Positions 3,784 through 51,033 of a DNA stretch of 64,000 bases are shown here, piece after piece (position 1 is the first letter of the stretch; every line of letters starts with the position of its first letter). The stretch is from the UHGV virus genome UHGV-0090252. One strand, given 5' to 3'. The notes beneath the pieces are model-generated. The model had not been told where the DNA came from, did no database searches, and saw nothing but the letters and a program-made list of their open reading frames with translations. A program made the position numbers and the translations under genes. The DNA comes from a virus.

Positions 3784-4155
3784 TTATTTTTCAGTATTCT
3801 TTGTGTTCTTTTCAGTAATAGCTTGGAGGGCTGATACTGATTGAGCCAGATTATTCACACTGTCAGAGAATTTATCAAGAGTTTTGGTAAGTTTTGCATT
3901 CTCACCCTTAACATTCTCTAACTGAACTTTCTGGTTCTCCATCCCTAACTGAATAAGTCTTATGTCAGACTGTAAATCACGAATAGCTGAGTAATTAGAT
4001 TTGCTATAATTATCTAGCTGCTGTAATTTTGTTGTGACAGACACCTCTTGCTTACCACTTGAAACTTGCATCGTGGTATACATCCCAATAACACTAAAAA
4101 TACCAACAACAATTGCACCAATATTATTTTTAAAAGCTTCCTCTATCCACTTCAT
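3784..4155 (-). CDS. membrane-anchored coiled-coil protein (function unknown)
   Basis: 123 aa; N-terminal hydrophobic helix IGAIVVGIFSVIGMY then heptad-rich region; downstream of the tail fiber genes. Confidence 0.45.
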   Translation of the reverse strand: MKWIEEAFKNNIGAIVVGIFSVIGMYTTMQVSSGKQEVSVTTKLQQLDNYSKSNYSAIRDLQSDIRLIQLGMENQKVQLENVKGENAKLTKTLDKFSDSVNNLAQSVSALQAITEKNTKNTEK

Positions 4156-4350
4156 TTATTTCTCCCCCTTAAAAGCTTTTTCTAAGTTATCTACGAATTC
4201 ATCATCAATAGGGGTGTCTGTCTTACCCGCAAGGTATCTTGCAAGCTTAAAGAACACTTTCTCAATCATGTATTCACTTAGAAGAGATAAAATGAGTTTC
4301 CAGAAGAAACTACCTAGATTTTTTAGGAGAATTGCTAGGATTGTAGGCAT
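4156..4350 (-). CDS. small membrane protein (holin-like, speculative)
   Basis: 64 aa with N-terminal hydrophobic segment; adjacent to the previous gene. Confidence 0.4.
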   Translation of the reverse strand: MPTILAILLKNLGSFFWKLILSLLSEYMIEKVFFKLARYLAGKTDTPIDDEFVDNLEKAFKGEK

Positions 4351-4429: not shown

Positions 4430-6763
4430 TTAAGCAGTCCTCACCCAAGCCATTAACTTATAGAACTGGTTAGTAACACTAAATGCTGAACCAGAACCTG
4501 TACCACCAGTGTTACCACTAACTGTATGACTGTGAGCACCAATACCAACACTGTGAGCATGGTTACCAGCAGAAGCGGCAGTACCACTTACAGAGTGGGT
4601 GTGAGCACCGTTAGCATCGGTGTAACCCGGCCCTGTACCAATGTAACCACCACCACCACCGGAATAGTGCTGTGAGTTCTGACCAATCCACGAAATAGAG
4701 TGGCTGTGGTTACCAGCAGATGAAGTAGAACCACTTACAGAGTGGGTGTGAGCACCAGTCGTGTTAGTGTTTTTTGTTCCGTAGTCAAAAGACGAAGTAG
4801 TAGCAGAAAAACTGTGTGTGTGTGAAGGTAAGTTACCAACAGATAACGTTACAGAATCTGAACCACCAGTTGTAGCAACATCTGAACCGTTAGCTGCTGC
4901 AATCCTGATTGTTCTACCTACACCATTGTTAAGGTACGTCCAAGTTAGACCAGGCAGTGCTGTATTAGGGTTAACGTTACTGTTAAACCACGTTACAATA
5001 CCAACAGGGTAGATTTTATTAAGGTCTGTTGAATCACTTACTGCCTGTGCAATCTTCTGGTCAGTTTCTGCTTTAGTGTATGCACCAATATCTGAAGGGG
5101 TTGGCTTCTGTGCAGTTGTGTACACCATAGCCCAACTTTTCTCAAAGCCATCACCATCTCTTGATGTCCTATACCACATACCACCATTCGCCCATTTAAA
5201 TCTTAGCTGCGCAGACGGTGTAGATGACTCAGACCCCTGATATAACTGAAGTAAAAGATTTGATGATGTAGCTCCAGTCTTGACATTATACAGCCCTGTC
5301 TTAGCATCCCAAGCAATAGCAGCATCATTATCACCTTCACCAGTTTTTCCTGCATACATGTATCTGGCGTTTGATGCTGAACCGGTATAGTACCTTTTAT
5401 CTAGGTTAGTCCAGTCTGATGGTTGAACCTGCCCAGTGATTGTTACATTCTTATTAAACTGGATATAGTTCTCTCTAAGAGACAGTTCAGTACCTAACAC
5501 CATCTCCCTGATAGTAAAGTTTCCTGAAGCATTAGTACCCATAAACCACTTTTTAGCACCATCAGAAGTATAACCTTGCAAGAACAAACCACCAGTATCA
5601 TTTACCCCTTGAAGCCTAATACCCTCTCCATCAGCCTTAATAATCTGACCTTGAGAAAAAGTATTCTTAGCATTAATTTTTGCAAGAGTGCTTAATGTTG
5701 CTGCCGGAATATATCTAGAGTCAATGTTAGTCCAATCTGAAGGTTGAACTTGACCAGTTACAGTTAGTGTTTTATTGATATTAACACTTGTCCCTACAGT
5801 AATCTTGCCACTAGTTTTGTAGTTTTCTAGAGCTACGTTATCACCTTCGTTACTATTACCAATGTACCATCTGTTGACACCTGTGCTATCAATTGCTTTA
5901 ATGTACAATGGTTGTGCAGCATTGGCATTCTGTAGCCTAATTGCTTCACCATCTTTTTTGAAAACACTCAGTTGGTTGAATGTATTAGTGCCGTTAAAAG
6001 TGTTATTACCAGCCAACTTTGCAAATCTTTGATTAGCCAATGTTTGGGTAAAGTATCTATCATCTAGGTTAGACCAGTCTGAAGGTTTAACCTGACCAGT
6101 GATATTTAAATTCTTATTAGAATTAATACCTGCTGAATCCAATGTCAATGTCGTGCCAGAGGCTTCATTTGATAATCCAAGAACATTTGAAGTATTAAAT
6201 CCAACATACCATTTATTAGTTCCAGATGGGTCTTGACCTCTAACATAGAGAGAAGGGCTATCAGTTGCACTTCTTAACAACAGTGCTTGACCATCTGCTA
6301 CAATTGTCTGCCTAGACTTAAAAGTATTTAGTACTTCTAATCTAGCATATCTAGCATCATTCTCAGCATTAGTTCTCATCCCAAGTTCATTAGGGCTTGG
6401 CTTATTAAGAGTATGATAAACAGTTGCAGACCTTGAAGCATCTGCAATAGTTAGTTTAAGACCATTTGCATTAATTTTAAAAGTCTTTAAAACATCCCCC
6501 ATAGTAATCTCAGAAGAGCCTGTAGGGTCAAAGACTGCCTTACCACCATAAAGTAACTTAACAATCCCTAAGTCACCCGTCATAGTGCTACCAGCAATCT
6601 GAACAAATCTTTCTAGTTTAAAAGACGCTAAGAAGTCTTGATAGGTCATTCGACGGTCTTCATCACCCAGCATTTCAGGTCTCTTTTTAACCCTGACATG
6701 AAGGAGGTCGTCTGAACGAATTGTATCAATTGAGTTTAATTCACTCAACTTGTAATCTGCCAT
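4430..6763 (-). CDS. tail fiber protein (long) with internal tandem repeats and C-terminal HxH array
   Basis: 777 aa; three ~105-aa internal repeats (ITGQVxPSDW[ST]N[IL]DxRY); C-terminus rich in HTHS/HSHS/HAHS motifs like metal-binding fiber tips; C-terminal AFSV..W..RTA shared with the next gene. Confidence 0.8.
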
Positions 6764-6809: not shown

Positions 6810-7958
6810 TTAAGCTGTTCTCTGCCATACATACAATACGAAGGATGGCTGTTCAACGCTAAACGCTTGACCAGAACCAGTTGTGCCAGTTGTGCCAGAG
6901 TGCGAATGCTCACCTGCTCCGGTTACTGTTACTGTTGCTGAGTGGTTGTGGGAACCAATTGCAACAGAATGGCTGTGAGCACCAATCCCCACTGTGTGAT
7001 TATGCGCACCAATTGCTACAGAGTGAGTGTGGTTGTTAGCTGTTGTCAGCGTAGCTCTTGGGTCATAGCTTGCCCCCTCAACTGATAAACCTCTCCAACC
7101 ACCATCAGCATAACCACGATTAATGAATGTTGTTTGTGTTAAACCAGCAGCACTGGTTGTTCTGTTACCATAGTCATAAGTAGATACAGTCTTTGTTCCA
7201 TAGTCAAACGTTGTAGTCCCTTTAGTACCGTAGTCAAAAGCACTGATAGAGGCCGTTGCACCGTGTGTGTGACCACCACCAGTGACGTATACTGAGTGAG
7301 TATGTGCAGGAATGTTGTTAACTGTCAGTGCAGTAGTCTGCGAACCAAACGTTGAACCAACTGGCCTAGAAGCACTATCATAACCTACAAGTGCTCTTCC
7401 TTTTGAAACTAACTCCCAAGTACCTCCACAAATTAAATATGTAGAAGGGTTTGCAGGATTCATAGAGAGATGGATAGTACCTACTGGATAAGAAGCCTGA
7501 ACAGCCTTGTACAAGTTATTTACTGCTCTTGCTGTAGCATACTTATCTGCATCCTCATTATAAAGGTTAGATGTCACCCAGTTCTGAACATTGCTTAACC
7601 CAACCTGTGCCTTAGTAGTATTGTGTGGGTTGCTCTTATCATCAATATGCTGTTGAATAAGATTATTAACCTCTTCTGAAGACATAATCTGTAGATTCGC
7701 TCTTGCCTCAGCTACATTAACAATATCTGATAAGTTATTTTCAGCAACTAACTGGAGAGCATTAATAACGTTATCTAAACCAATTTGTGTCTTAGTAACA
7801 CCATGTGGGTTATTTCTTAGGCTTGAGTGTGGAGCAAGTAATTGCTCAAGAGTACATCTCTTATCCTCGATACCCTGTTTAAGATGGAAGATATCACTAA
7901 GGTCAATTGGTAAGGCTGCTTGAGGCAAGGCACTAATTTGAATTTCACCTACTGCCAT
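6810..7958 (-). CDS. tail fiber protein with C-terminal HxH array
   Basis: 382 aa; repeated HTHS/HNHT/HSHS motifs and the same C-terminal AFSVE..VWQRTA module as the long fiber. Confidence 0.75.
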   Translation of the reverse strand: MAVGEIQISALPQAALPIDLSDIFHLKQGIEDKRCTLEQLLAPHSSLRNNPHGVTKTQIGLDNVINALQLVAENNLSDIVNVAEARANLQIMSSEEVNNLIQQHIDDKSNPHNTTKAQVGLSNVQNWVTSNLYNEDADKYATARAVNNLYKAVQASYPVGTIHLSMNPANPSTYLICGGTWELVSKGRALVGYDSASRPVGSTFGSQTTALTVNNIPAHTHSVYVTGGGHTHGATASISAFDYGTKGTTTFDYGTKTVSTYDYGNRTTSAAGLTQTTFINRGYADGGWRGLSVEGASYDPRATLTTANNHTHSVAIGAHNHTVGIGAHSHSVAIGSHNHSATVTVTGAGEHSHSGTTGTTGSGQAFSVEQPSFVLYVWQRTA

Positions 7959-42789: not shown

Positions 42790-44300
42790 TGTACCAACCT
42801 CTGGGTCACCATCATATGTGAATAAAATATCTATCCTTCTTAACAGCCTTCTTAATCTTACTCTCTATATAGTTATATAGTACTATATAGTATCTTAGTA
42901 ACTATCTAGTGGTCTTAATAGCCCTCTGTATAACCCTTCTAACAAGCCCTCTAACAAGCCTTCTAAACAACCTATACAATCACCTTAACCATCTCTCTAT
43001 ACTCTCTTAGAAGCTCCCATACACCTCTTAATCTCTAGGTTAGCTATGACACTCTCTATAGGTGTTCACTAGGTATTACTAAGCCTCTATATAGACTGTT
43101 TTAACAAACTTAACAGGAATATCTTCACAGACCTTATCTCACAAGGTCTAACACGGTACTAACAAGGTATCTTATAAGCCTGTTTCCACCTGTATTTTTA
43201 AAAGACTGTATAGGTAATTATTCAGAATTTTAAAATTTTTATAAAATAGGACTATCAAGTCATTTTTTTAGGGTCTTTGAAGGAACTGAAAAATATCTGT
43301 AGAAGATGTATATCTGCTTGGTAGCCCTTAACAGCTCCCTTACAAGTACTTTGCAGAATTTTAAAATATCATTAACAGTTTCTTAACAGTTCTCACATCT
43401 TCTTAACAACTCTTCAAAGGTCTTAACAGTTTCTTAACAGAACTAACAAGGGTTTAACAGTTTTCTAGGGATTGGTAACAATACCAATTAACAAGTGCTG
43501 AATAGGCTTTACAGAGGCTTAACAGATGACTAACAAGAGCTAACAAGTTAATTTTTAAGAGTTATTTTGTTAAGATAATTAACAAGTCCCTAACAAGTGT
43601 TTAATCTTTTTAACAAGCTATTAACATGGTCACTACTCTTTTCTTATCGTTCCCTTTCCTTTCTTAGTGACTTCTTAAACATACCTCTTAAAAGCTCTTA
43701 AAAGCTCTTTATAGGCTCTTTTAAGTCCCTCCCTAGTATTTACCCCTCAACTGTATGGATAGCTCTTTATAGGGCTTTACAGGAGCTTTTAAGGCTATGC
43801 CAAAGGTTCTTACAAGGTTTTTACGTGGTCTTAACAGAGATTTAACAAGGTGCTAACAAGAATAACTATGTAGGGTTTGTTAAGAAAATGTTAAAAAAAT
43901 GTTAAGGGGGCTAGCATTTACGTAACTTTTAAGCTACTTCAAAGTAACTTTATAACCCCTATAACATACTTTTTAATAGCTATCAAGGGGTTTGTTTAAT
44001 CATTCACAAGATACTAGCCAGCCTATAAGCTTTCACCCTTATAAGGTTCTTTTAAGGCTCTCAGAAGCTTTATAAAGGGCTTTTTAGGGTGGGTTAATAT
44101 GATTGCTTAAGTTAGGGTGATAAGGCTGTTATAGGGCGTTATAGAGCGTTTAAGGGGTTGCCCTTCCCTTTCGGGTTATGGGCTTATATTTAAGTTGATT
44201 TGATAAGAGGTTATAGAGTAGACTATAGAGTTATTGCTTTTTAAGGTCTAGTAAGATTCTGGAAAGGAAAGGGAAAGGGTTTGTATAAGGATTCGATAGA
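42790..44300. repeat. 1.5-kb non-coding region dense in short motif repeats (TAACAG/TAACAAG more than 25 copies; TATAGRG; CTTTTAAG), with a strand-composition switch
   Basis: No ORF of 60 aa or more; left part almost G-free on the plus strand, right part C-poor; lies between convergent terminators. Confidence 0.6.
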
Positions 44301-44303
44301 CGT

Positions 44304-44328
44304 AAAAAAGCCCCTTTGAGTAGGGGCT
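44304..44328 (-). terminator. rho-independent terminator ending the minus-strand small-gene array
   Basis: Minus-strand AGCCCCT-ACTCAA-AGGGGCT followed by T6. Confidence 0.65.
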
Positions 44329-44366
44329 GTTCAGGTATCTGGGGCTAAATAGCCCCGCTGCGTCGA

Positions 44367-44615
44367 TTAGTTAGTGCCTTCTTTGTCGTAGTACAGGGAG
44401 ACAATTTTTTCACCCCAATAGTGAAAAGAATAACCCTCTTTAAGAACTTCCTGTTTTGTTTCCTCCCAGAACTCATTAGAAGGATTATAGTCGCTGATGG
44501 TCTGACTGATAAGACCTTTCACCATTTCAAAGGCGTTATCAGTGCCTGCAATGTCAAATTTAACATCCAGAGAGTAAAAACCAAATTCGTTAACAGTAGC
44601 GCGGATAGTTGCCAT
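44367..44615 (-). CDS. small protein, array gene A
   Basis: 82 aa; ATG immediately follows conserved leader ...AGGAGATTCAAAAATG. Confidence 0.55.
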   Translation of the reverse strand: MATIRATVNEFGFYSLDVKFDIAGTDNAFEMVKGLISQTISDYNPSNEFWEETKQEVLKEGYSFHYWGEKIVSLYYDKEGTN

Positions 44616-44683
44616 TTTTGAATCTCCTAGTTTAAGGGTTTTATTTAGTGGGGAAGGTCATTCCCTCTCCGTTGATTGACAAT
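44616..44683 (-). promoter_or_regulatory. conserved leader type 1 (GC hairpin GGGAAGG/CCTTCCC-like plus SD)
   Basis: Fills the whole intergenic gap; near-identical copies before 6 other genes of the array. Confidence 0.55.
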
Positions 44684-45214
44684 TTACAGATTTTTGATTG
44701 TCTCATCAATATCTTTTTCAATATCTCTCAAAGTTTTTTCTAAGTTCTTGATATTGAAAGATAAGCCTTCTCCCAGTGTCTTAGCGTAACCATTGGGGCG
44801 CAAGTCATGCAGTTCGATTCCTTCCACTTCGAAGAGACTAACCAGCTCACCGCTTACAGTGTAAGCCATTGAAACAGTATTTACAGGGGCTTTATAGAAC
44901 TTGTTTAAGAACTTGATTGAACGCTCATAAGCCATTTTATAGCTATTTAAAAGGTTTTTAACTTGGCTATGAACGTTTTTGCACTCATCCAAGTAAATCC
45001 CTAAGAATAGCGGTAATAATTCTGCTACAGCTTGCATAAAGTGAGAGACTACAACGGTTGCAGCATTACGACGATGAACGTAATAAGCCCCGTTTTCTGA
45101 TTTGGTGATGGTTGCAAAGTGTACCCCATTGCAGCGAAATTCGTAGGTATCTTTGACAGGCTTTGACATTACAGCATTTGAACGAATATAGTTGATGGCT
45201 TTGAACTTGTTCAT
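44684..45214 (-). CDS. hypothetical protein, array gene B
   Basis: 176 aa; conserved leader upstream. Confidence 0.55.
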   Translation of the reverse strand: MNKFKAINYIRSNAVMSKPVKDTYEFRCNGVHFATITKSENGAYYVHRRNAATVVVSHFMQAVAELLPLFLGIYLDECKNVHSQVKNLLNSYKMAYERSIKFLNKFYKAPVNTVSMAYTVSGELVSLFEVEGIELHDLRPNGYAKTLGEGLSFNIKNLEKTLRDIEKDIDETIKNL

Positions 45215-45300
45215 TTTTGAATCTCCTAGTTTAAGGATTTTATTTAGTGGGGGAGGTCATTCCCTCCCGTTGATTAGTAATTTACTTGTTTTGATAGCTG
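45215..45300 (-). promoter_or_regulatory. conserved leader type 1 (hairpin GGGGAGG-6 nt-CCTCCCC plus SD)
   Basis: Perfect 7-bp GC stem about 45 nt before the ATG; followed by a further 140 nt non-coding gap. Confidence 0.55.
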
Positions 45301-45437
45301 ATTGCAAGCAATTTTTTAAGCTTATCTATAAAGAACCTTTTAAGTGAATCCCTTTTAGATAAACCCCCCTCGAACAACATTACCAATGTCAAGGGGTATT
45401 GTCAACACTTTTTTGAAAGTTTTTTGTAAGTTGTTGA

Positions 45438-45779
45438 TTAACTGATGAATATTTTTTCAGGTTTTACATAGCTGATACGTTGGATTTTTAGCAGGTCATC
45501 CCAGATTAGTGCGGCAATATGAGCATAACCGGATTCACGTAGAAGCTTCATTGCTTTACTTCTCGTTTCAAATCGGTTTGCATAGTACTCGCTGCTCAGG
45601 GTTGTTTTCTTCCCTTCATTGTCTACATGAATAATCTGCATTACTTGGAAGGGGCTTACATCCTCGCCTTTATTCCATTGCTCAAAGTATTTTAGGCACT
45701 GCATAGGTGTCATCTTATCACTTACTTGGGTTGACCAAGATGAATCCGGTTTATTGGTGATTACAGTTACATAAGCCAT
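45438..45779 (-). CDS. hypothetical protein, array gene C
   Basis: 113 aa. Confidence 0.55.
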   Translation of the reverse strand: MAYVTVITNKPDSSWSTQVSDKMTPMQCLKYFEQWNKGEDVSPFQVMQIIHVDNEGKKTTLSSEYYANRFETRSKAMKLLRESGYAHIAALIWDDLLKIQRISYVKPEKIFIS

Positions 45780-45870
45780 TTTTGAATCTCCTAGTTTAAG
45801 GATTTTATTTAGTGGGGGAGGTCATTCCCTCCCCGTTGATTGACAATTTACAGACTTTTATCAGGCTTGT
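45780..45870 (-). promoter_or_regulatory. conserved leader type 1
   Basis: Same sequence family as 44616-44683. Confidence 0.55.
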
Positions 45871-46104
45871 CTAGTCTTTTTCAATGATAATTTCATATTG
45901 ACCATCAACACTATCAAAATAAATGCCGTCGTCGTCTTCTGTCTTAAAGTAGCATTGAATATCATCACTTGCGGGGTAGTCTTGCCTTGCTATCTGGCAA
46001 ACTTGAATAGCATTTTCTTTACTTCCTGTAAACTCCTCAAGCCCTTTAAAATCGCATGAATGACCATTACAGATGGAAAGGATGAGATAAATGGTTGTAA
46101 GCAT
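45871..46104 (-). CDS. small Cys-containing protein, array gene D
   Basis: 77 aa. Confidence 0.5.
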   Translation of the reverse strand: MLTTIYLILSICNGHSCDFKGLEEFTGSKENAIQVCQIARQDYPASDDIQCYFKTEDDDGIYFDSVDGQYEIIIEKD

Positions 46105-46111
46105 GATTTAA

Positions 46112-46138
46112 GCCCTCTAAAAGCCCCTACAAGGGGCT
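46112..46138 (-). terminator. hairpin plus U-run (terminator or attenuator inside the array)
   Basis: Minus-strand AGCCCCT-TGT-AGGGGCT followed by TTTTAG; replaces the conserved leader before gene D. Confidence 0.45.
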
Positions 46139-46169
46139 AATTAGTGTTTATAAGGTGATTATATAGATT

Positions 46170-46712
46170 TTAGAAAAAGCTCTTTAAATCTTTCTCTGTG
46201 ATGTTTCCTGTCAGTGTGTCCATGATGTCACAAAAAACCTGAATACTGTCCGACTGTTGAACGCTTTTAGCAAGAAGTTCCAGAGACTCATCAAGATAGT
46301 TTAAATTTGGGTTATCCAGTGAAGGAAGACAAAAAGGCGAAAACATCGCATTAAACTCGGTTACGTAAACCTTTTTAATCCAACTTGCATCAAAGTACTC
46401 TGTAAAACTTGCCACGCCAGACATATTATCACAAGAATAATCATCATTCAGCTCATCCTCTGGAATATCAAGTTCCAAGATAACAATATTTTGAGTTTTC
46501 ATCTGGAAAGCGGCTGTAATAGTGGCATTACCTAATGCTTGCTGAATGCCTTCGGCTGTCATCTCTTCTTCATCGTCGCCATAGATTTTATTTTCTGGAT
46601 ACACGTAAAAATTACCGTCCATGTCCGAACAATTCCATGCGCCTGATGGTTTATCGCCGTTATTAATCAGGTTGAGGAAGTTTTCTTGAGTAGTACCGTG
46701 AAAGCATTTCAT
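46170..46712 (-). CDS. hypothetical acidic protein, array gene E
   Basis: 180 aa. Confidence 0.55.
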   Translation of the reverse strand: MKCFHGTTQENFLNLINNGDKPSGAWNCSDMDGNFYVYPENKIYGDDEEEMTAEGIQQALGNATITAAFQMKTQNIVILELDIPEDELNDDYSCDNMSGVASFTEYFDASWIKKVYVTEFNAMFSPFCLPSLDNPNLNYLDESLELLAKSVQQSDSIQVFCDIMDTLTGNITEKDLKSFF

Positions 46713-46797
46713 TTTTGAATCTCCAGTCTAGGATTTAGTGGTAAAGCTCTTTATCTGGAGCTTAAGATATCAACTTTTAAGCCCCCTGTAAAGTACT
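46713..46797 (-). promoter_or_regulatory. conserved leader type 2 (hairpin GGGGCTTAA-loop-TTAAGCCCC plus SD)
   Basis: Near-identical copies before array genes G, J, K (and hybrid before L). Confidence 0.55.
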
Positions 46798-47001
46798 TTA
46801 TCGGTTATTTTTGACAACTTTTAAAACAGCACGGTAACCTAAGCAATAGGAATCACCGAAGAGCGACCGACCCATGAAGGAGTCCTCTGTAATATCTTTC
46901 GCCGTGACGGTTTTTTCTACGCCGTGAAAAAGAACTACATCCCCGGCTTTAATGTCTTTGATGTGTGTGGTTTCAATGGTTAAGCCGTTAATAATAGCCA
47001 T
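46798..47001 (-). CDS. small protein, array gene F
   Basis: 67 aa. Confidence 0.5.
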   Translation of the reverse strand: MAIINGLTIETTHIKDIKAGDVVLFHGVEKTVTAKDITEDSFMGRSLFGDSYCLGYRAVLKVVKNNR

Positions 47002-47111
47002 TTTAGAATCTCCTAGTTTAAGGGCTTTATGTAGTGGGGGGGATGGTCATTCCCTCCCCGTTGATGTGTAATTTAATATATATATATAAAAACCAGTGTC
47101 AACAAAAATTT
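47002..47111 (-). promoter_or_regulatory. conserved leader type 1 plus (TA)5 tract
   Basis: Type 1 hairpin and SD; atatatatata at about 47078-47089. Confidence 0.5.
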
Positions 47112-47516
47112 TTAAAGTTCTGCATAAATTGCATCACAGATATTACGGAAGTCGTGATTTGACAAATTACGCTGCAACCAAGTGGCGAAAAAGTCAGCGA
47201 TTGCATAATTAGCATCATACTCGACGGATAGCCATACTTTTACGGCGAATCTGAACATTTTTAAATCAAGCTCTTTATTCATTACCTTAGATTTGCCCAA
47301 CATGTCAGCCATTTCATATTGCGCACCGTCTAGCGTGATACCTGCTGCAACGTCAGTTAATGAGTTTTTCACGTTTTCAACGTCTAAGATAACACTTTGA
47401 ATCTTCCCAATAATGTTGTGCAATGTTTCATCAGGTGCTGATGATGTCAGAACATTAATCCGGTTAACTGTCAAACGTGCTTTTAAGATTGATAACTCAC
47501 GGTTATTAATAGCCAT
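47112..47516 (-). CDS. hypothetical protein, array gene G
   Basis: 134 aa. Confidence 0.55.
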   Translation of the reverse strand: MAINNRELSILKARLTVNRINVLTSSAPDETLHNIIGKIQSVILDVENVKNSLTDVAAGITLDGAQYEMADMLGKSKVMNKELDLKMFRFAVKVWLSVEYDANYAIADFFATWLQRNLSNHDFRNICDAIYAEL

Positions 47517-47603
47517 TTTTGAATCTCCAATTTAGGATTTAGTGGTAAAGCTCTTTATCTGGGGCTTACTTTATCGAACTATAAGCCCCCTGTAAAGTAC
47601 TTT
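47517..47603 (-). promoter_or_regulatory. conserved leader type 2
   Basis: Hairpin GGGGCTTA-13 nt-TAAGCCCC. Confidence 0.55.
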
Positions 47604-47876
47604 TTATACTAAATGCAGTTTTTTACCTTTTACTATGATGTAACTTGATGCGCTATTACTTTGCACATCTTGATAAATTCTACGCAAACGGCCTTCGTAG
47701 TATACTTTCCAACTGGTTGGAATCTTTTTCCCGTATCCTGTAGCAGTTTTTTGCAGTCCTGCAAGTTGCCAATCAAGAATATGTTGTTCAGCTTGTAAAT
47801 CCTCGAAGTGCATTACGCCGTTCACATAGTGGCGCAGGGTTACGTTTAAGGTGCGACCGTTGTTAGTAGTATACAT
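47604..47876 (-). CDS. hypothetical protein, array gene H
   Basis: 90 aa. Confidence 0.5.
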   Translation of the reverse strand: MYTTNNGRTLNVTLRHYVNGVMHFEDLQAEQHILDWQLAGLQKTATGYGKKIPTSWKVYYEGRLRRIYQDVQSNSASSYIIVKGKKLHLV

Positions 47877-47966
47877 TTTAGAATCTCCTAGTTTAAGGGC
47901 TTTATGTAGTGGGGAAGGTCATTCCCTCCCCGTTGATTAGTAATTTACTTGTTTTTAAAATCAAAA
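47877..47966 (-). promoter_or_regulatory. conserved leader type 1
   Basis: Type 1 hairpin and SD. Confidence 0.55.
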
Positions 47967-48299
47967 TCAAGATAAATTTTTTCGTTTGCTCAGTTCTTGA
48001 ACAATTACAGCGTAGTAGTCTTTTAAGTCACTGATATTTAAAGCATTTATCAGAGAGTTATAATCATCGACTAACTGAAAATCATCTTTAAAGATGTCGC
48101 TGATTTGATAAGTTCTCGATTGAAATCTGAAACTCATTTCTAACCGTTTTATTTGTTCATCACTTAAACGCTCCAGAAAGCTCATTACAAGGCTATTATT
48201 GACCTGTTGCGTGATTGCCTTACTTGCCAGAGTATAGGCGCTGTACGCCTTATATAGCGCCATAATAGCAATGATTGCAGTGATGCCAGTCATTAGCAT
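47967..48299 (-). CDS. membrane-associated protein, array gene I (translationally coupled to J)
   Basis: 110 aa; N-terminal hydrophobic helix; 7-nt overlap with upstream gene, no leader of its own. Confidence 0.5.
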   Translation of the reverse strand: MLMTGITAIIAIMALYKAYSAYTLASKAITQQVNNSLVMSFLERLSDEQIKRLEMSFRFQSRTYQISDIFKDDFQLVDDYNSLINALNISDLKDYYAVIVQELSKRKNLS

Positions 48300-48589
48300 G
48301 GTGATTCCTCTTTACGTGATACTTTGCCGCTTACAGTTATCTCATAAGATTCTAATAAATCACTTTTAGACTTTACAGGGCTTTTAAAAGTATTATCGTA
48401 AATATTGACTTGCAATACAGGGTTTTTATACTCCCTGCAACTATTCCATAAGCAAATCACTACACGACGGCCTTTAATTTTGCCGTGTAACCATTCCATA
48501 ACATCATGATTATTTCTTGATGTTTCAATGAAATCAATTTTATTAAGTAACTTGCTCAGATTTTCACGAACTTTATTTGATAATTTCAT
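48293..48589 (-). CDS. hypothetical protein, array gene J
   Basis: 98 aa. Confidence 0.5.
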   Translation of the reverse strand: MKLSNKVRENLSKLLNKIDFIETSRNNHDVMEWLHGKIKGRRVVICLWNSCREYKNPVLQVNIYDNTFKSPVKSKSDLLESYEITVSGKVSRKEESPC

Positions 48590-48677
48590 TTTAGAATCTC
48601 CAATTTAGGATTTAGTGGTAAAGCTCTTTATCTGGGGCTTACTTTATCGAACTATAAGCCCCCTGTAAAGTACTTTA
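48590..48677 (-). promoter_or_regulatory. conserved leader type 2
   Basis: Identical over about 80 nt to 47517-47603. Confidence 0.55.
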
Positions 48678-48968
48678 TTAGTTAATTTTCAGCTTTGCAT
48701 GACCTCTCATTGTACGAATGGGGGAGGTTAAGGCTACGCGTCTAATATATGCCTTTTTCGTGTATATATTTGTCTTCCCGATAGTGTTTACACATGTAAA
48801 AAGGTTTATTGGTGAATTTTTTAACTTCAACTGTTTATCAACCTTCACGCCCCACCTTACAGCAGACTGTTTTCCGTTGTCAACAACTTTACCGCATAAC
48901 TTTTTAGCCATAATGCGAGCATCATCACGAGTTTTTGCAGTAATTACAACGTTTTTGATAATAGCCAT
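48678..48968 (-). CDS. small basic protein, array gene K
   Basis: Start set to the leader-aligned ATG at 48968 (ORF track extends to 48983 into the leader). Confidence 0.5.
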   Translation of the reverse strand: MAIIKNVVITAKTRDDARIMAKKLCGKVVDNGKQSAVRWGVKVDKQLKLKNSPINLFTCVNTIGKTNIYTKKAYIRRVALTSPIRTMRGHAKLKIN

Positions 48969-49054
48969 TTTTAAGTTCTCCAATTTAGGATTTAGTGGTA
49001 AAGCTCTTTATCTGGGGCTTAAGATATCAACTTTTAAGCCCCCTGTAAAGTACT
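48969..49054 (-). promoter_or_regulatory. conserved leader type 2
   Basis: Hairpin GGGGCTTAA-11 nt-TTAAGCCCC. Confidence 0.55.
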
Positions 49055-49438
49055 TTATTTGTTAATTTTGAAGATAGTTACATAACCATCGCTACCAATG
49101 ATTTGCGGCACTCCAACTTTTTCTACTGAATAGCCCATATTTTCAAGATGATAAATGGCATCATCATAACCATATGCGCCACCCTGATAACGTCTCTTAT
49201 TGCATTTTATCAGGTTTTTTCCACGTCCTGCAAGTGCATTCAGTATGGTTTTTTCGCTTGAGAGTGTACCATCTATCATGGTTGCCGTGTAATGGTTGAT
49301 TTTATTCCCGTTGATGTCATATTTAAAATTAAATGAGTGAACAACAATTTTATTGCCTTTGAAATTCTCATCAAGTGACTTCTCCAGTACGTTGCGAAAG
49401 TTGTCTTTGTTGATGAATTTCGGTGCACGATAAGCCAT
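49055..49438 (-). CDS. hypothetical protein, array gene L
   Basis: 127 aa. Confidence 0.55.
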   Translation of the reverse strand: MAYRAPKFINKDNFRNVLEKSLDENFKGNKIVVHSFNFKYDINGNKINHYTATMIDGTLSSEKTILNALAGRGKNLIKCNKRRYQGGAYGYDDAIYHLENMGYSVEKVGVPQIIGSDGYVTIFKINK

Positions 49439-49529
49439 TTCTGAATCTCCTAGTTTAAGGGTTAATGTGGTAAAGCTCTTTATCTGGGGCTTAAGATATC
49501 AACTTTTAAGCCCCCTGTAAAGTACTTTA
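49439..49529 (-). promoter_or_regulatory. conserved leader, type 1/type 2 hybrid
   Basis: Type 1 SD-proximal part joined to type 2 hairpin. Confidence 0.5.
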
Positions 49530-49736
49530 TTAGATATCGTAGTAATAAACTGCTGTCTGTCTTATGTGCTTTCTTGTATTTCTTGTAAGGTAGCAATCAG
49601 AGTTGATTGCTGTTTCTACATAGTTGCAATAGTCAGCTTCTGATATTCTAGACCATACGCCACAGATTTGCATGTAAAAACGTTTTACCTTTGTGTTAAC
49701 GTTAGTTGTAACCATCAATTCACGACCGTATAGCAT
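49530..49736 (-). CDS. small protein, array gene M (first gene of array)
   Basis: 68 aa. Confidence 0.5.
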   Translation of the reverse strand: MLYGRELMVTTNVNTKVKRFYMQICGVWSRISEADYCNYVETAINSDCYLTRNTRKHIRQTAVYYYDI

Positions 49737-49790
49737 TTTTAAGTTCTCCTAGTTTAAGGCTGTCGGGCTTGTCGCCCCGTCTGATGCAAA

Positions 49791-49818
49791 TACTATAAAA
49801 ACCCGTTCAAGGAGTCAA
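49791..49818 (-). promoter_or_regulatory. candidate sigma70-like promoter for the small-gene array (TTGACT ... TATAGT)
   Basis: Minus-strand TTGACT and TATAGT with 15-16 bp spacer, AT-rich upstream. Confidence 0.35.
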
Positions 49819-49979
49819 TGAAAATTTTTAAAAATATTTTTGGCAAAAATGTAATGAAACGGGTGCGCGCGATTACCACAAAACAGAACTACAATCAAGA
49901 ATTATTTTTCAATCCGCTACAAATTTTTCTGTTGACTTTTATTTTCAGATGTGGTAGCCTTGTGAGAAATGGCGACAGC

Positions 49980-50200
49980 CCCACCTACACCCACCTACCT
50001 GCACAATTCTCAAATGATTTTTCTTGCCCGACCTGATTTTTCTCTGCACGTTTTGAAAATGAAAAAGCTCTTTGGAGATTACCTGCACAGTTTGAAAATG
50101 AATTTTCTCTTTGGAGTTCAAAATTCTCTCTACAGATTTCTCTATAGAAATATACCTGCACAATTCTGAAATGAAAAAGCCCTCCTTACCTGAAAAATTT
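49980..50200. repeat. four imperfect direct repeats of CCTGCACARTT..AAATGA(AAAAGC) in a non-coding region
   Basis: Direct reading; only short overlapping ORFs on both strands. Confidence 0.5.
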
Positions 50201-50247
50201 ACCAGATAAGAAAGGCTTAGTCTATTGTGAATATCCTACGAAGTTTC

Positions 50248-51033
50248 TTAGTTCTTTGCGTCTAAGAAGGTAACTTCTGGCGAAGAGAAAACTGTCTCGA
50301 TATCCTCATCAGTTCTTGCATAGATGTAGGTGTCTGCATCGCTACCAAATGTCACGGCAATTCTATGATTGCTCTTCGACAGGTGGGTAACTAGAGCGTT
50401 ACTTAGAGACATCTTTTCAACCGGAGGGTTACTTTGATGTATCTTACCTTTTCTTCGTCTGAAGAGGGTAACTGCATTATCCGTGAACACAACTACACCT
50501 GCAAAGTATTCTGGTTCACAGTAGTTCTTCCAACCTGAGCGTAACTTGTGGTACATCTCTCCTTCATAGACATACAGATAAACATCCACACTCTTCATCA
50601 CCTGATTGATGATAACTGTGACAGCTTGAGGGTCAAGTCCACCAATACCTGCACCAATCATAGGTAAACCAACTTTCTTCAACTGATTGACTTCACAGTA
50701 TCTGTTAAGCTGTTTCAAAGATGACTCTAAAGCACTGTATCGTGCATCTTTACCAGTATGAAGTTGGGTGTAAAGGTTAGCTATACGACCTTGTTTTAAA
50801 CGTGCTACAGATAAATTACCTAGTAAATTTTCACAGGGTTTGTGACGAATGCCACCTGCAAACAGGTAAACTTCTGTGTCAGTATCATACACTTTTGGAT
50901 AACGCTTAGAAATAGTTGCTGCAATACCTGCACCCATGAAATTCATACAGTTGCAACCATGACCAATGATATCAAATTTACCTTTATCAAATGCTTCAAA
51001 GATATCACCTTTGATGATTTTTACAATACCCAT
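50248..51033 (-). CDS. macro-domain protein (ADP-ribose binding/processing) with C-terminal extension
   Basis: 261 aa; macro-domain-like motifs GDI..DIIGHGCNCMNFMGAGIAATI and VGLPMIGAGIGGLDP. Confidence 0.65.
   Translation of the reverse strand: MGIVKIIKGDIFEAFDKGKFDIIGHGCNCMNFMGAGIAATISKRYPKVYDTDTEVYLFAGGIRHKPCENLLGNLSVARLKQGRIANLYTQLHTGKDARYSALESSLKQLNRYCEVNQLKKVGLPMIGAGIGGLDPQAVTVIINQVMKSVDVYLYVYEGEMYHKLRSGWKNYCEPEYFAGVVVFTDNAVTLFRRRKGKIHQSNPPVEKMSLSNALVTHLSKSNHRIAVTFGSDADTYIYARTDEDIETVFSSPEVTFLDAKN

Follow-up and report, generated by a model that had tools for sequence, protein, structure and literature searches.

The early region of a Felix O1-like phage is probably organised as a hyperplastic array of 11 self-contained expression cassettes, in which composite leaders would work like the promoter-early stem-loop (PeSL) elements of T4-like phages. 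The window, i.e. the whole stretch of 64,000 nucleotides that we analysed, belongs to Felixounavirus, with 253 related records and best matches that are 91-95% identical. Each leader would combine three elements: a promoter recognised by sigma-70 RNA polymerase of the host, an RNA hairpin rich in GC, and an A-rich leader that carries a GGAG ribosome site. Promoter-plus-hairpin cassettes have already been described in T4-like phages, not previously in the Felix O1-like group. We describe the anatomy of the leaders, their pattern of conservation across the family, the covariation of their stems on the sense strand, and the crossovers that occurred within them, from which we infer promoter activity, start sites, and the effects of the hairpins on RNA.

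An array of unrelated genes behind two families of leaders

The array (44367-49736) comprises 13 minus-strand orphan ORFs of 67-180 aa (Table 1). They are mutually unrelated, as the initial annotation had proposed: the best E-value of an all-against-all BLASTP is 0.59, the genes fall into 13 different PHROGs, all of unknown function, and a Pfam search with the 13 proteins returned no match. One of the proteins, the product of gene 5, has a predicted ADP-ribosyltransferase-like fold, which is compatible with a role in host takeover as envisaged by the initial annotation. The start of gene 11 was corrected to the ATG at 48968 (96 aa), instead of the TTG of the ORF list.

One of two repeated leader families precedes 11 of the 13 genes, a count that includes gene 13 because its upstream region is type-1-like with a different stem sequence. 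The remaining two are the second genes of two-gene cassettes, hence nine single genes and two gene pairs. Among the 12 intergenic gaps, 10 hold a conserved leader, not 11 as first counted: genes 10 and 9 share an overlap of 7 nt and lack an intervening leader, and the 65-nt gap between genes 5 and 4 has a different GC hairpin (46122-46138), followed by four T and a weak ribosome site. Of 12 relatives inspected, 11 have genes 10 and 9 side by side, and SP2 has gene 9 without gene 10; genes 5 and 4 are either both present or both absent in relatives.

The division into two families and one hybrid is confirmed. The common leader ending TAGGAGATTCAAAAATG is present in nine copies (with at most 3 mismatches) where 0.5 are expected, all within the array, and GGGGCTTA-N13-TAAGCCCC in five copies where none is expected. 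The type-1 core has three copies at a stringent setting, and five when taken as an 85-nt repeat family. The hybrid is the leader of gene 12, with a 5' part of type 2 and a type-1-like 3' part. The array is enclosed by two true terminators, corresponding to t13 and t23 of Felix O1 (PMC3185647 Table 2), the upstream one lying after a macro-domain phosphatase gene (50248-51033; Phosphatase and Macro domain identified). None of the leader hairpins has a U-tract, as already noted by the initial annotation, and they are thus not canonical intrinsic terminators.

Table 1. Features of the array and its boundaries, in the direction of transcription. All lie on the minus strand; promoter elements are putative.
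Feature	Coordinates	Promoter elements	Hairpins and remarks
Intrinsic terminator, upstream boundary	50177..50218		17-pair stem, then T-run
Gene 13 leader, type-1-like	49737..49830	-35 TTGACT 49818-49813; -10 TAGTAT 49795-49790	ATCAGAC 49785-49779; hairpin GGGC-GACAA-GCCC ~49777-49765; then CCTTAAACTAGGAGAACTTAAAAATG
Gene 13	49530..49736		68 aa, orphan, phrog_5293
Gene 12 leader, hybrid	49439..49529	-35 TTTACA 49521-49516; -10 TATCTT 49498-49493, TGn before	long hairpin 49529-49471, upper stem 49514-49486; -21.9 kcal/mol, z -3.7
Gene 12	49055..49438		127 aa, orphan, phrog_4495; missing from phage Alf5
Gene 11 leader, type 2	48969..49054	-35 49049-49044; -10 TATCTT 49026-49021	long hairpin 49057-48999, begins with gene 12 stop codon; z -4.6
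Gene 11	48678..48968		96 aa, orphan, phrog_5089; missing from Alf5
Cassette 10-9 leader, type 2	48590..48677	-35 48669-48664; -10 TAAAGT 48646-48641	long hairpin 48677-48619; z -4.5
Genes 10-9, one cassette	47967..48589		gene 10, 48293-48589, 98 aa; gene 9, 47967-48299, 110 aa
Gene 8 leader, type 1	47877..47970	-35 TTGATT 47970-47965; -10 TAAATT 47947-47942	ATCAAC 47937-47932; hairpin 47931-47911; -15.2 kcal/mol, z -3.2
Gene 8	47604..47876		90 aa, orphan, phrog_3436
Gene 7 leader, type 2	47517..47604	-35 47596-47591; -10 TAAAGT 47573-47568	long hairpin 47604-47546; z -4.4
Gene 7	47112..47516		134 aa, orphan, phrog_4327
Gene 6 leader, type 1	47002..47111	TTGACA 47102-47097; -10 TATATT 47080-47075 or TAAATT 47075-47070; 11/12 consensus matches	TA microsatellite fills spacer; ATCAAC 47065-47060; hairpin ~47059-47036
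Gene 6	46798..47001		67 aa, orphan, phrog_3623; missing from Felix O1
Cassette 5-4 leader, type 2	46713..46800	-35 46792-46787; -10 TATCTT 46769-46764	long hairpin 46800-46742; one upper-stem G·U pair (GCTCC); z -3.0
Genes 5-4, one cassette	45871..46712		gene 5, 46170-46712, 180 aa, ADP-ribosyltransferase-like predicted fold; gene 4, 45871-46104, 77 aa
Gene 3 leader, type 1	45780..45873	-35 TAGACA 45873-45868, including gene 4 stop codon; -10 TAAATT 45850-45845	ATCAAC 45840-45835; hairpin 45834-45815; -15.9 kcal/mol, z -2.7
Gene 3	45438..45779		113 aa, orphan, phrog_4318
Gene 2 long leader	45215..45437		extra promoter/hairpin unit, then type 1
Extra unit		TTGACA 45405-45400; -10 TAATGT 45382-45377	arms 45396-45389 and 45373-45366
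Type-1 unit		-35 TTGCAA 45307-45302; -10 TAAATT 45284-45279	ATCAAC 45274-45269; hairpin 45268-45251
Gene 2	44684..45214		176 aa, orphan, phrog_4725
Gene 1 leader, type 1	44616..44709	-35 TTGATG 44709-44704, within gene 2; -10 TAAATT 44686-44681, overlaps gene 2 stop codon	ATCAAC 44676-44671; hairpin 44670-44650, weakened (GGAGAGG); -8.3 kcal/mol, z -0.7
Gene 1	44367..44615		82 aa, orphan, phrog_4559; last array gene
Array end region	44301..44356		relic hairpin, then true terminator
Type-2-like relic hairpin	44356-44341		GGGGCT-ATTT-AGCCCC, then AGATA
Intrinsic terminator, downstream boundary	44328-44309		with T-run

Composite leaders with a constant geometry

We compared the leaders with those of 13 relatives from four Ounavirinae genera. 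The type-1 set holds 72 copies (67 distinct) and the type-2 set 69 copies (47 distinct) from 14 phages (Felixounavirus, Mooglevirus, Suspvirus, and Kolesnikvirus), figures that are not counts of independent events because copies within a phage share descent and gene conversion.

Type-1 leaders are ordered as an AT-rich tract, TTGnnn-N17-TAAATT, ATCAAC, and a GC hairpin a few bases past the predicted transcript start. The -10 hexamer has T, A, and T positions that never vary, at a constant distance from ATCAAC. Exactly 17 bp upstream, a TTGACA-like hexamer (4-6 of 6 matches) is found in 13 of 15 mutually dissimilar upstream contexts, and the two exceptions are TA-microsatellite shifts that retain a perfect TTGACA. 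The hairpin begins 6 nt past the A of ATCAAC for 59 of the 67 distinct copies, its stem measures 6-8 bp in 56 of them, and its mean energy is -13 kcal/mol. This same place is filled by at least four stem sequences unrelated to one another, and folding favours the sense strand over the antisense in 46 cases versus 18. Transcription is predicted to start within ATCAAC, so that some 3-5 nt would separate the hairpin from the mRNA 5' end. In that position it may act as a 5' stabiliser; 5'-terminal stem-loops shield mRNA from 5'-end-dependent decay. The degraded hairpin of the gene 1 leader in the window (z -0.7) speaks against the cassette reading.

In type-2 leaders, the putative promoter TTTACA-N17-TAnnnT lies within a hairpin, with the -35 element in the lower stem and the -10 element in the loop. 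The initial annotation rightly recognised a GC stem, but its 9 bp are only part of an interrupted hairpin of ~59 nt, which begins with the upstream stop codon or right beside it (included in the lower stem in three of the five window copies) and is recovered by minimum-free-energy folding at -19 to -22 kcal/mol (z -3.0 to -4.6). All 47 distinct copies have TTTACA, a 17-bp spacer, and T, A, and T at positions 1, 2, and 6 of the -10 hexamer, and 26 have TGn before it. Positions 3-5 carry 0.34, 0.07, and 0.25 bits across 11 different hexamers, and the rest of the loop varies freely. The sole length change (nine distinct copies, seven phages) is located 3' of the -10 hexamer, so that the 17-bp spacing is kept.

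The alignment of the type-2 stems revealed changes on both sides of three pairs (1-59, 5-55, and 18-42), the latter two from G-C to U-A in four sequences each. In this alignment 97% of cells are paired, versus at most 59% with partners slid, and none of the 500 shuffles reaches the observed covariation score or number of paired cells. On the sense strand, 30 cells are G·U and one is A·C, and the sense energy is -21 to -23 kcal/mol in all genera, while the antisense is weaker, down to -16. These patterns indicate that the type-2 hairpin is under selection as sense-strand RNA. Since the predicted start is 3' of the upper stem, the leader's own transcript would lack the hairpin, which would fold only in read-through RNA from upstream. 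There it would mark the 3' side of the upstream gene and insulate neighbouring cassettes, possibly by blocking exonucleases, by attenuation, or as a processing site of the RNase III type; attenuation and processing, both suggested initially, are live options.

The initial annotation missed the putative host sigma-70-type promoter that occurs with constant geometry in every leader. An independent promoter scan gave 28 promoter-like sites versus 18.3 +/- 4.2 expected by chance, including all five type-2 copies of the window, which score only 9 of 12; as this DNA is AT-rich, consensus matches alone are weak evidence. Moreover, the conservation of the type-2 promoter is largely confounded with the hairpin, since CTTTA in the -35 region and the final T of the -10 are paired; its specific signal comes down to four unpaired bases that never vary, the spacing of 17 bp, and the TGn seen in many copies.

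Leaders as sites of cassette exchange

The idea of a portable regulatory cassette placed before diverse accessory genes fits the comparative data well. Leaders are conserved across the four genera and are mosaic modules: phages differ in content by whole cassettes only, and the crossovers of these insertions and deletions fall inside the leaders. The junction between genes 13 and 10 in Alf5 is made of two leaders of the window, 13|12 (5' half) and 11|10 (3' half), and the junction between genes 7 and 3 in Felix O1 is likewise made of the window's 7|6 (5' half) and 4|3 (3' half). Because the leaders are near-identical direct repeats of 60-100 bp, homologous recombination could delete, insert, and swap whole genes, and a swapped gene would always arrive behind a working promoter and ribosome site.

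PeSLs of T4-like phages have the same layout as these leaders: an upstream stop codon, an AT-rich tract, -35 and -10 boxes, a stem-loop, then the ribosome site and start (PMC2839356). Their stem-loop lies between the boxes, on top of them, or past the -10; they precede orphan genes in plastic regions; and their promoter and terminator activities were demonstrated with reporters (PMC2839356). The promoter consensus of the T4/PST set is TTTACW-N17-TAYWAT (PMC4122927). For Felix O1-like phages, the literature searched holds no mapped transcription start, 3' end, or processing site. RT-PCR placed the Felix O1 array ORFs 16, 20, 21, and 22 in the 5-minute class, which speaks for the cassette reading; that ORFs 17, 19, and 23 peak in a later class counts against it (PMC3185647).

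Alternative explanations

The array could instead be one T7-like early operon read from a single strong promoter before gene 13, its leaders being RNA elements with no active promoters: the long type-2 hairpin would be a site where RNase III or another nuclease cuts polycistronic RNA into stable single-gene mRNAs, and the type-1 hairpin a stability or translation element. The structure agrees with this, being an interrupted helix of ~18-20 bp with 2x2 and 3x3 internal loops immediately behind each stop codon, which matches in size and shape the RNase III sites of the phage T7 early region. The covariation and sense-strand G·U pairs show selection as RNA, base pairing accounts for part of the apparent promoter conservation, and real terminators bound the array, whose interior has just a weak one, ahead of gene 4. 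Yet the T and A of the -10 and the C and A of TTTACA are unpaired and nonetheless invariant in 47 of 47 copies at exactly 17 bp, a spacing that the single indel respects. Nor does a model of RNA elements alone predict a TTG-type hexamer at 17 bp in the 13 of 15 unrelated type-1 upstream regions, some of them coding, and T4-like phages offer a proven case of promoter activity from this architecture. We regard the operon without leader promoters as unlikely; processing of read-through RNA is in any case compatible with promoters. Another reading takes the inverted repeats, TAAAGnnCTTTA (present twice) and GGGGCTTA-N13-TAAGCCCC, for DNA operators rather than RNA structures, by which a dimeric phage or host regulator would turn early promoters off; it seems highly improbable. 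Shut-off of early genes is common in lytic phages, some two helical turns separate the GC arms, and the -35 element is overlapped by a perfect palindrome of 12 bp, TAAAGTACTTTA, with a second copy just downstream of the predicted start. However, the GAGAT/TAAAT...ATTTA variants (pair 5-55, four sequences) break each palindrome and keep the pairing between the 5' and 3' copies, and the excess of G·U over A·C, with an antisense strand destabilised in divergent genera, points to sense RNA rather than duplex. No candidate regulator was identified.

Highly conserved, repeated, hairpin-bearing sequences without U-tracts before early genes might also suggest promoters for phage-specific machinery, be it a phage RNA polymerase or N4-type hairpin promoters. 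The initial annotation had raised phage-specific promoters, a notion we find barely credible: conservation falls exactly on the positions of the host -35/-10 consensus, which suggests promoters of the host sigma-70 type. N4 hairpin promoters have 3-nt loops, whereas those found here are of 5-6 nt and 11-13 nt. Furthermore, the Felix O1 genome paper reports neither a phage RNA polymerase nor known polymerase-modifying genes (PMC3185647). Finally, the array has small unrelated ORFs with a conserved imperfect hairpin of ~60 nt behind each, and its cassette content varies among relatives, which recalls an integron-like system with attC-like sites of site-specific recombination after promoterless ORFs. 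The chances of this are minimal, as the elements bear promoter and ribosome-site signals that are absent from attC sites, the Felix O1 genome paper mentions no integrase (PMC3185647), and Felix O1-like phages have a strictly lytic life cycle. The crossovers fall within long tracts of plain identity, the outcome that homologous recombination would give.

Layout of the array

A megablast search with positions 44300-50300 matched 253 phage records, nearly all of them Escherichia, Salmonella, Shigella and Citrobacter phages of the Felix O1 type (Ounavirinae), with LinBro (91% identity over the full length) and Alf5 (95%) as top matches. On this basis, the window covers some three quarters of a Felixounavirus genome. 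The array, which ends on either side at a genuine intrinsic terminator (t13 and t23 of Felix O1), consists of 13 ORFs encoding 67-180 aa on the minus strand, numbered here from 13 (first transcribed) to 1 (last). The initial annotation had described these genes as small and unrelated, and they are: the lowest E-value in an all-against-all BLASTP comparison was 0.59, the proteins belong to 13 separate PHROGs with no function assigned there, and a Pfam search of all 13 gave no match. It had also placed a conserved leader in 11 of the 12 intergenic gaps. The repeated leaders are real, but their number in the 12 gaps is ten: genes 9 and 10 overlap, with no leader between them, and upstream of gene 4 there is another kind of hairpin, directly followed by a weak ribosome site. 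A type-1-like leader with another stem sequence lies upstream of gene 13. Genes 5 and 4 are gained or lost jointly in every relative compared, and genes 10 and 9 are adjacent in the relatives, with the one exception of SP2, which lacks gene 10. Given the overlap, the leaderless gap and this joint inheritance, the array is best described as 11 cassettes with one leader each, i.e., nine single genes and the pairs 10-9 and 5-4.

Two leader families and their distribution

The leaders fall into two types: type 2 has TTTACA-N17-TAnnnT inside a hairpin of about 59 nt, and type 1 has TTGnnn-N17-TAAATT, then ATCAAC and a GC hairpin. Their repetition, which had been noticed from the outset, is far beyond chance: the common 3' end TAGGAGATTCAAAAATG occurs nine times vs 0.5 expected, the type-2 stem pattern five times vs none expected in the window, and the type-1 core forms an 85-nt repeat family of five copies; all leader copies in the window are confined to the array. 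Sensitive blastn against 50,697 phage records found the two leaders in 288 and 245 records, with 1,422-1,436 occurrences. Judged by organism name, all but two oddly named records belong to Felix O1-type phages of enterobacteria and Erwinia, and there was no T4-like phage among the matching records for either leader. The exceptions are Staphylococcus phage SA1 (GU169904, 147 kb) and one Campylobacter phage; as such hosts are implausible for the element, these records are possibly chimeric or mislabelled. An Rfam 15 search of positions 43000-51000 gave no family at gathering score and only two sub-threshold chance matches. GenBank marks fragments of the leaders only, as a 14-nt repeat_region in Mordin and as opposite-strand "terminators" at the type-1 hairpins in KhF2.

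The elements had been seen before in another guise. The genome paper of Felix O1 lists a 57-bp direct repeat, CTTTACATGGGGCTTAAAAGTCTGTAAAGTAAGCCCCAGATAAAGAGCTTTACCACT, and a 39-bp direct repeat, TTGACACTGGTTTTTAGATAGATTAAATTACACATCAAC, both as unexplained repeats only, and names no promoter or structure for either (Whichard et al. 2010, PMC3185647); the former is our type 2 and the latter the type-1 promoter. We found no mapped transcription starts or 3' ends of Felix O1-like phages in the searchable literature, and nothing on promoters in the paper on wV8.

For comparison, we gathered leader copies by anchoring on GATAAAGA and ATCAAC in the window and 13 relatives: ten further Felixounavirus genomes, Mordin (Mooglevirus), SUSP1 (Suspvirus) and phiEa104 (Kolesnikvirus). 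This gave 69 type-2 copies (47 distinct), aligned on TTTACA, and 72 type-1 copies (67 distinct), anchored on ATCAAC; copies within one genome are not independent. The Erwinia relative phiEa104 also has further kinds of leader built on the same logic (see the table of features).

Features of the array, its surroundings and its relatives
Feature	Genome	Position	Strand	Description
Array	window	44367-49736	-	genes 13 to 1
Hairpin after last gene	window	44341-44356	-	GGGGCT-ATTT-AGCCCC then AGATA, just before the true terminator; resembles a decayed type-2 core
Third promoter/hairpin unit	window	45366-45405	-	in the 223-nt gap before gene 2; TTGACA-N17-TAATGT; arms CCCCTTGA and TCGAGGGG enclose the -10; then about 100 nt of conserved non-coding sequence (GGTTTATCTAAAAGGGATTCACTTAAAAGG...), kept as far as Mordin and SUSP1
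TA microsatellite	window	47075-47096	-	spacer of the putative gene-6 promoter; length differs among window, Alf5 and pinkbiff; other relatives have AGATAGAT instead
Four-copy repeat	window	50040-50220	read on -	TTTTCATTT(T)CA(G/A)AA(T/C)(T/G)GTGCAGGTA, copies spaced 39-73 nt
Short repeats	window	43370-43615 and 44040-44300		TTAACA-rich and CTTATA/CCTATAAC-like repeats
Further leader kinds	phiEa104	5690-5766 and 7287-7655		TTGCAA-N17-GACTAT, hairpin GGGGTTA...TAACCCC around the -10, then GTCAAC; GAGGGG-TTAAAAT-CCCCTC, TAAAAT in the loop, then ATCAAC
Tandem type-2 cores	Mordin	4140-4260		pair of cores before one gene

Type 2: a putative promoter inside a long hairpin

In all 47 distinct type-2 copies, TTTACA is invariant, the spacer to the next hexamer is 17 bp, and positions 1, 2 and 6 of that hexamer are T, A and T. 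Its positions 3-5 are near random (0.34, 0.07 and 0.25 bits), giving eleven different hexamers, and TGn precedes it in 26 of the 47. This conservation, although partly confounded with base pairing, has the pattern of a sigma-70 promoter, which we take as a prediction. The copies vary in length at one place only, downstream of the -10 hexamer, which shifts the register of the stem and leaves the promoter spacing intact.

Minimum free energy folding gives, for each of the five copies in the window, an interrupted hairpin of about 59 nt (-19 to -22 kcal/mol, z -3.0 to -4.6). From the base upwards it consists of a lower stem UAAAG/CUUUA, a 2x2 loop, CUUUA/UAAAG, a 3x3 loop, an upper stem GGGGCUUA(A)/(U)UAAGCCCC and a loop of 11-13 nt, i.e., a helix of 18-20 bp with two internal loops. 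The stem proposed in the initial annotation is thus real, while its extent had been underestimated. Across the 47 aligned sequences, 97% of the cells pair, vs at most 59% with slid partners. The covariation that the initial annotation had suggested looking for is present: three pairs changed on both sides, including 5-55 and 18-42 (each from G-C to U-A, in four sequences), and both the number of paired cells and the covariation score lie above all 500 shuffles. The cells contain 30 G·U on the sense strand vs one A·C, and folding energies of the sense strand are -21 to -23 kcal/mol throughout the genera, vs -16 to -18 kcal/mol for the antisense strand of the divergent ones. The excess of G·U and the stability of the sense strand therefore indicate that the structure was selected in sense RNA.

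Promoter and hairpin are interlocked. The lower stem includes the -35, the spacer includes the 5' arm, and the loop carries the -10, with the 3' arm following. Of the five window copies, three open the lower stem with the stop codon of the preceding gene, and two have this codon 1-3 nt upstream of the stem. Transcription is predicted to start at AGATAAAG, some 7 nt downstream of the -10 and beyond the upper stem on its 3' side. A transcript starting there would lack the 5' half of the hairpin, so that only RNA reading through from upstream could fold it.

Type 1: a putative promoter followed by a 5' hairpin

The type-1 -10 is TAAATT, TAAAGT or TAGTAT, with T, A and T invariant, and ends 4 nt before ATCAAC. 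A TTGACA-like hexamer is found exactly 17 bp upstream in 13 of 15 contexts sharing less than 70% identity, in the forms TTGACA, TTGACT, TTGCAA, TTGACG, TTGATT and TAGACA, several of them inside the preceding coding sequence. The other two contexts have a perfect TTGACA that a TA microsatellite has shifted out of place; the window's gene 6 leader is one of these two, and it has a scan score of 11 of 12 with an alternative -10. Slippage of this microsatellite would alter the spacing between -35 and -10 and hence the strength of the gene-6 promoter. PeSLs, the elements of T4-like phages compared below, have an AT-rich tract before the -35; type 1 has such a tract there, with the consensus AAAAATTT, and type 2 has only TAAAGTAC, which belongs to the lower stem.

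Transcription of type-1 units is predicted, by the usual 7-nt rule from the -10, to begin within ATCAAC. Counted from the A of this motif, the hairpin starts 6 nt further on in 59 of the 67 distinct copies; it averages -13 kcal/mol and has 6-8 bp in 56 of them. The stems at this position are of at least four unrelated sequences (GGGGAGG, GGGGC, GGGC and GGGA types), and folding is better for the sense strand in 46 cases and for the antisense strand in 18. In the window, type-1 hairpins reach z -2.7 and -3.2, and the one before gene 1 is degraded (z -0.7). RNAalifold gave no consensus structure for 45 type-1 leaders, whose stems are misaligned by indels, and sequences were folded singly.

Several other readings of this element were discarded. 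The opposite-strand terminators of KhF2 are at odds with the G·U asymmetry, which shows selection on the sense strand. A mini-ORF in the loop (MTSPTK-stop) was rejected as a leader peptide because its ATG is absent from many variants. ORFs starting at this ATG had joined genes 8 and 6 in one family, which direct BLASTP and PHROGs show to be unrelated.

The gap before gene 2 contains a third kind of promoter/hairpin unit, and the conserved non-coding sequence after it may be a small RNA or a long leader.

Cassettes are exchanged at the leaders

Ten Felixounavirus phages, compared for the order of their gene families, differ by whole cassettes only. Alf5 lacks genes 12 and 11; in Felix O1 another gene, of 170 aa, replaces these two, and genes 6, 5 and 4 are absent. 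Two junctions could be resolved, both to shared leader cores. The junction between genes 13 and 10 in Alf5 is identical to the window leader between genes 13 and 12 through the hairpin loop and to the one between genes 11 and 10 from CACTAAATCC on, and the crossover therefore took place in the common TAAGCCCCAGATAAAGAGCTTTACCAC. The junction between genes 7 and 3 in Felix O1 joins the 5' half of the window leader between genes 7 and 6 to the 3' half of the window leader between genes 4 and 3. The shuffling of cassettes at the leaders, which the initial annotation had proposed to look for in related genomes, is thus observed. The 3' modules with the ribosome site, CCTTAAACTAGGAG and CCTAAATTGGAG, occur in free combination with both 5' types, which explains the leader once described as a hybrid. 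The tandem cores in Mordin are what unequal recombination between leaders would give.

Relation to the PeSLs of T4-like phages

Promoter-early stem-loop elements (PeSLs) are known from T4-like phages (RB49/phi1, T4/PST and KVP40/nt-1). Each runs from the stop codon of the preceding gene through a sigma-70 promoter to a ribosome site, with a G/C stem-loop that lies between the boxes, over them or downstream of the -10. PeSLs precede orphan genes in hyperplastic regions, mediate modular exchange, and have promoter and terminator or attenuator activity in reporter assays (Arbiol et al. 2010, PMC2839356; Comeau et al. 2014, PMC4122927). The array leaders resemble them in 1) being short intergenic repeats from the upstream stop codon to the start codon; 2) having -35 and -10 boxes at 17 bp and a stem-loop of a G-run and a C-run; 3) being clustered before the orphan genes of a plastic early region; 4) bounding the indels and swaps between close relatives; and 5) the type-2 TTTACA, which fits the T4/PST consensus TTTACW-N17-TAYWAT (PMC4122927). 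There are also differences. The array phage belongs to another subfamily, the Ounavirinae, and the blastn searches found no sequence match of its leaders in T4-like phages; in type 2 the stem-loop grows into an interrupted hairpin of about 59 nt, which surrounds the entire promoter as far as the stop codon; in type 1 the hairpin is part of the 5' untranslated region, downstream of the predicted start, and its distance of 16 nt from the -10 places it slightly further downstream than in the published PeSL classes; and about 11 copies lie in one block vs at least 50 dispersed ones. Promoter and terminator activity and mini-circles are known for PeSLs; the promoters of the array leaders are predicted from sequence. 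The relation is one of kind and architecture, not of homology or descent, and what is particular to the array leaders is the long promoter-enclosing hairpin backed by covariation together with the hairpin in the 5' untranslated region. We found no paper linking PeSLs with Felix O1-like phages.

Proposed function and alternatives

Because the combined features of the leaders match those of PeSLs, we read the array as eleven autonomous early expression units, which the host polymerase would drive from the putative promoters. A promoter scan of this AT-rich DNA is unconvincing by itself (28 promoter-like sites vs 18 expected), and the case for predicted promoters is one of comparative conservation. 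In type 1, the hairpin would form the 5' end of the unit's own mRNA and, judging from mRNA decay in E. coli, shield it from RNase E. A 5'-terminal stem-loop with few unpaired bases, as in the ompA leader, protects E. coli mRNA against this enzyme, and the type-1 hairpin lies within a few unpaired nucleotides of a 5' end predicted from the position of the -10. In type 2, the hairpin would arise solely in read-through RNA and affect the message upstream of it, as a barrier to 3' exonucleases, an attenuator or an RNase III-type processing site, the last being considered because the helix is about two turns long and has internal loops; we prefer none of these. The genome paper of Felix O1 fits such host-driven units: it reports no phage RNA polymerase and lists these very sequences as repeats, it describes transcription past the region, promoters after terminators and temporal control as unexplained, and by RT-PCR it assigns ORFs 16, 20, 21 and 22 (its own numbering) to a 5-minute class, though ORFs 17, 19 and 23 belong to a later one (PMC3185647).

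A further step, which we take tentatively and hold to be doubtful rather than probable, is that the leaders are a true gene-cassette system of lytic phages, serving jointly as promoter, ribosome site, RNA insulator and recombination handle. Each orphan gene, a candidate for host takeover or anti-defence, would travel with its own promoter, ribosome site and insulator, and every cassette would be transcriptionally independent of its neighbours. Type 2 would have a dual use, as a promoter in DNA and, in read-through RNA, as a structure cut by RNase III or blocking exonucleases. The repeats would be the handles by which cassettes are exchanged across at least four Ounavirinae genera, possibly via packaged mini-circles.

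The main alternative is a single operon in which the leaders work as RNA only. In the early region of T7, interrupted hairpins of about two helical turns stand between consecutive genes as RNase III sites; these sites have no promoters, and the T7 early promoters are found at the left end only. The type-2 hairpin is likewise interrupted, about two turns long and of conserved sequence, and after cleavage the upstream mRNA would end in a hairpin. This likeness is one of shape, with no sequence similarity claimed, and the conserved promoter pattern within the leaders sets them apart from the T7 sites. We consider a single operon of this kind improbable, although it may be partly true beside the promoters. 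The hairpins could also be taken for intrinsic terminators, being GC-rich and placed directly after stop codons, but they have no U-tract on the sense strand; the initial annotation had for this reason held that they are not simple terminators, and the scans agree, as ours called none of the leader hairpins and was passed only by the terminators at both ends of the array and the hairpin upstream of gene 4, while TransTerm in Felix O1 did not call them either (PMC3185647, Table 2). The inverted repeats could be operators in DNA, but the change at pair 5-55 breaks each palindrome TAAAGnnCTTTA singly and keeps the pairing between the two, which argues for one long RNA helix and leaves two operator sites with a low probability. 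A phage-specific promoter, one of the options raised at first, fares no better: Felix O1 has no phage RNA polymerase (PMC3185647), the pattern is that of sigma-70, and the leader loops have 5-6 or 11-13 nt vs the 3-nt loop of N4-type hairpin promoters. We give equally little credit to the leaders being attC sites of the integron type.

The reading as host-driven units provides the first concrete hypothesis for a transcription map of the accessory early region of Felix O1-like phages, which are widely used in Salmonella typing, biocontrol and therapy. It would extend the PeSL principle beyond T4-like phages and suggests that promoter-plus-hairpin repeats could be a general means by which lytic phages keep swappable accessory genes expressed. 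The leaders would mark safe, self-expressing insertion points for engineering, and they delimit a pool of orphan genes for host-takeover and anti-defence screening, one of which is already ADP-ribosyltransferase-like.

Gene 5 and the neighbouring repeats

The predicted fold of the gene 5 product, a protein of 180 aa, looks like that of an ADP-ribosyltransferase. A knockout screen reported g107 of Bas63, with a noted resemblance to RNA 2'-phosphotransferase, as more essential on strain S17-1 (PMC11482910). If the numbering of that paper follows the bas63 locus tags, g107 is bas63_0107, the homologue of gene 5. These resemblances lend limited support to the early suggestion that the array holds host-takeover genes.

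Repeats of other kinds flank the array. The four-copy repeat with TTTTCATTT and GTGCAGGTA sits in a gene-free gap of about 510 nt, from the phosphatase terminator to the first array promoter; its copies are at the same offsets in nine Felixounavirus relatives checked, and VpaE1 has three of the four. They could be a set of binding sites for a regulator or another class of promoter. On the other side, some 1.6 kb without genes separate convergent gene blocks; the short repeats are found here, and the stretch may be an origin or a genome-end region. Pinkbiff has repeat_regions annotated at the equivalent place.
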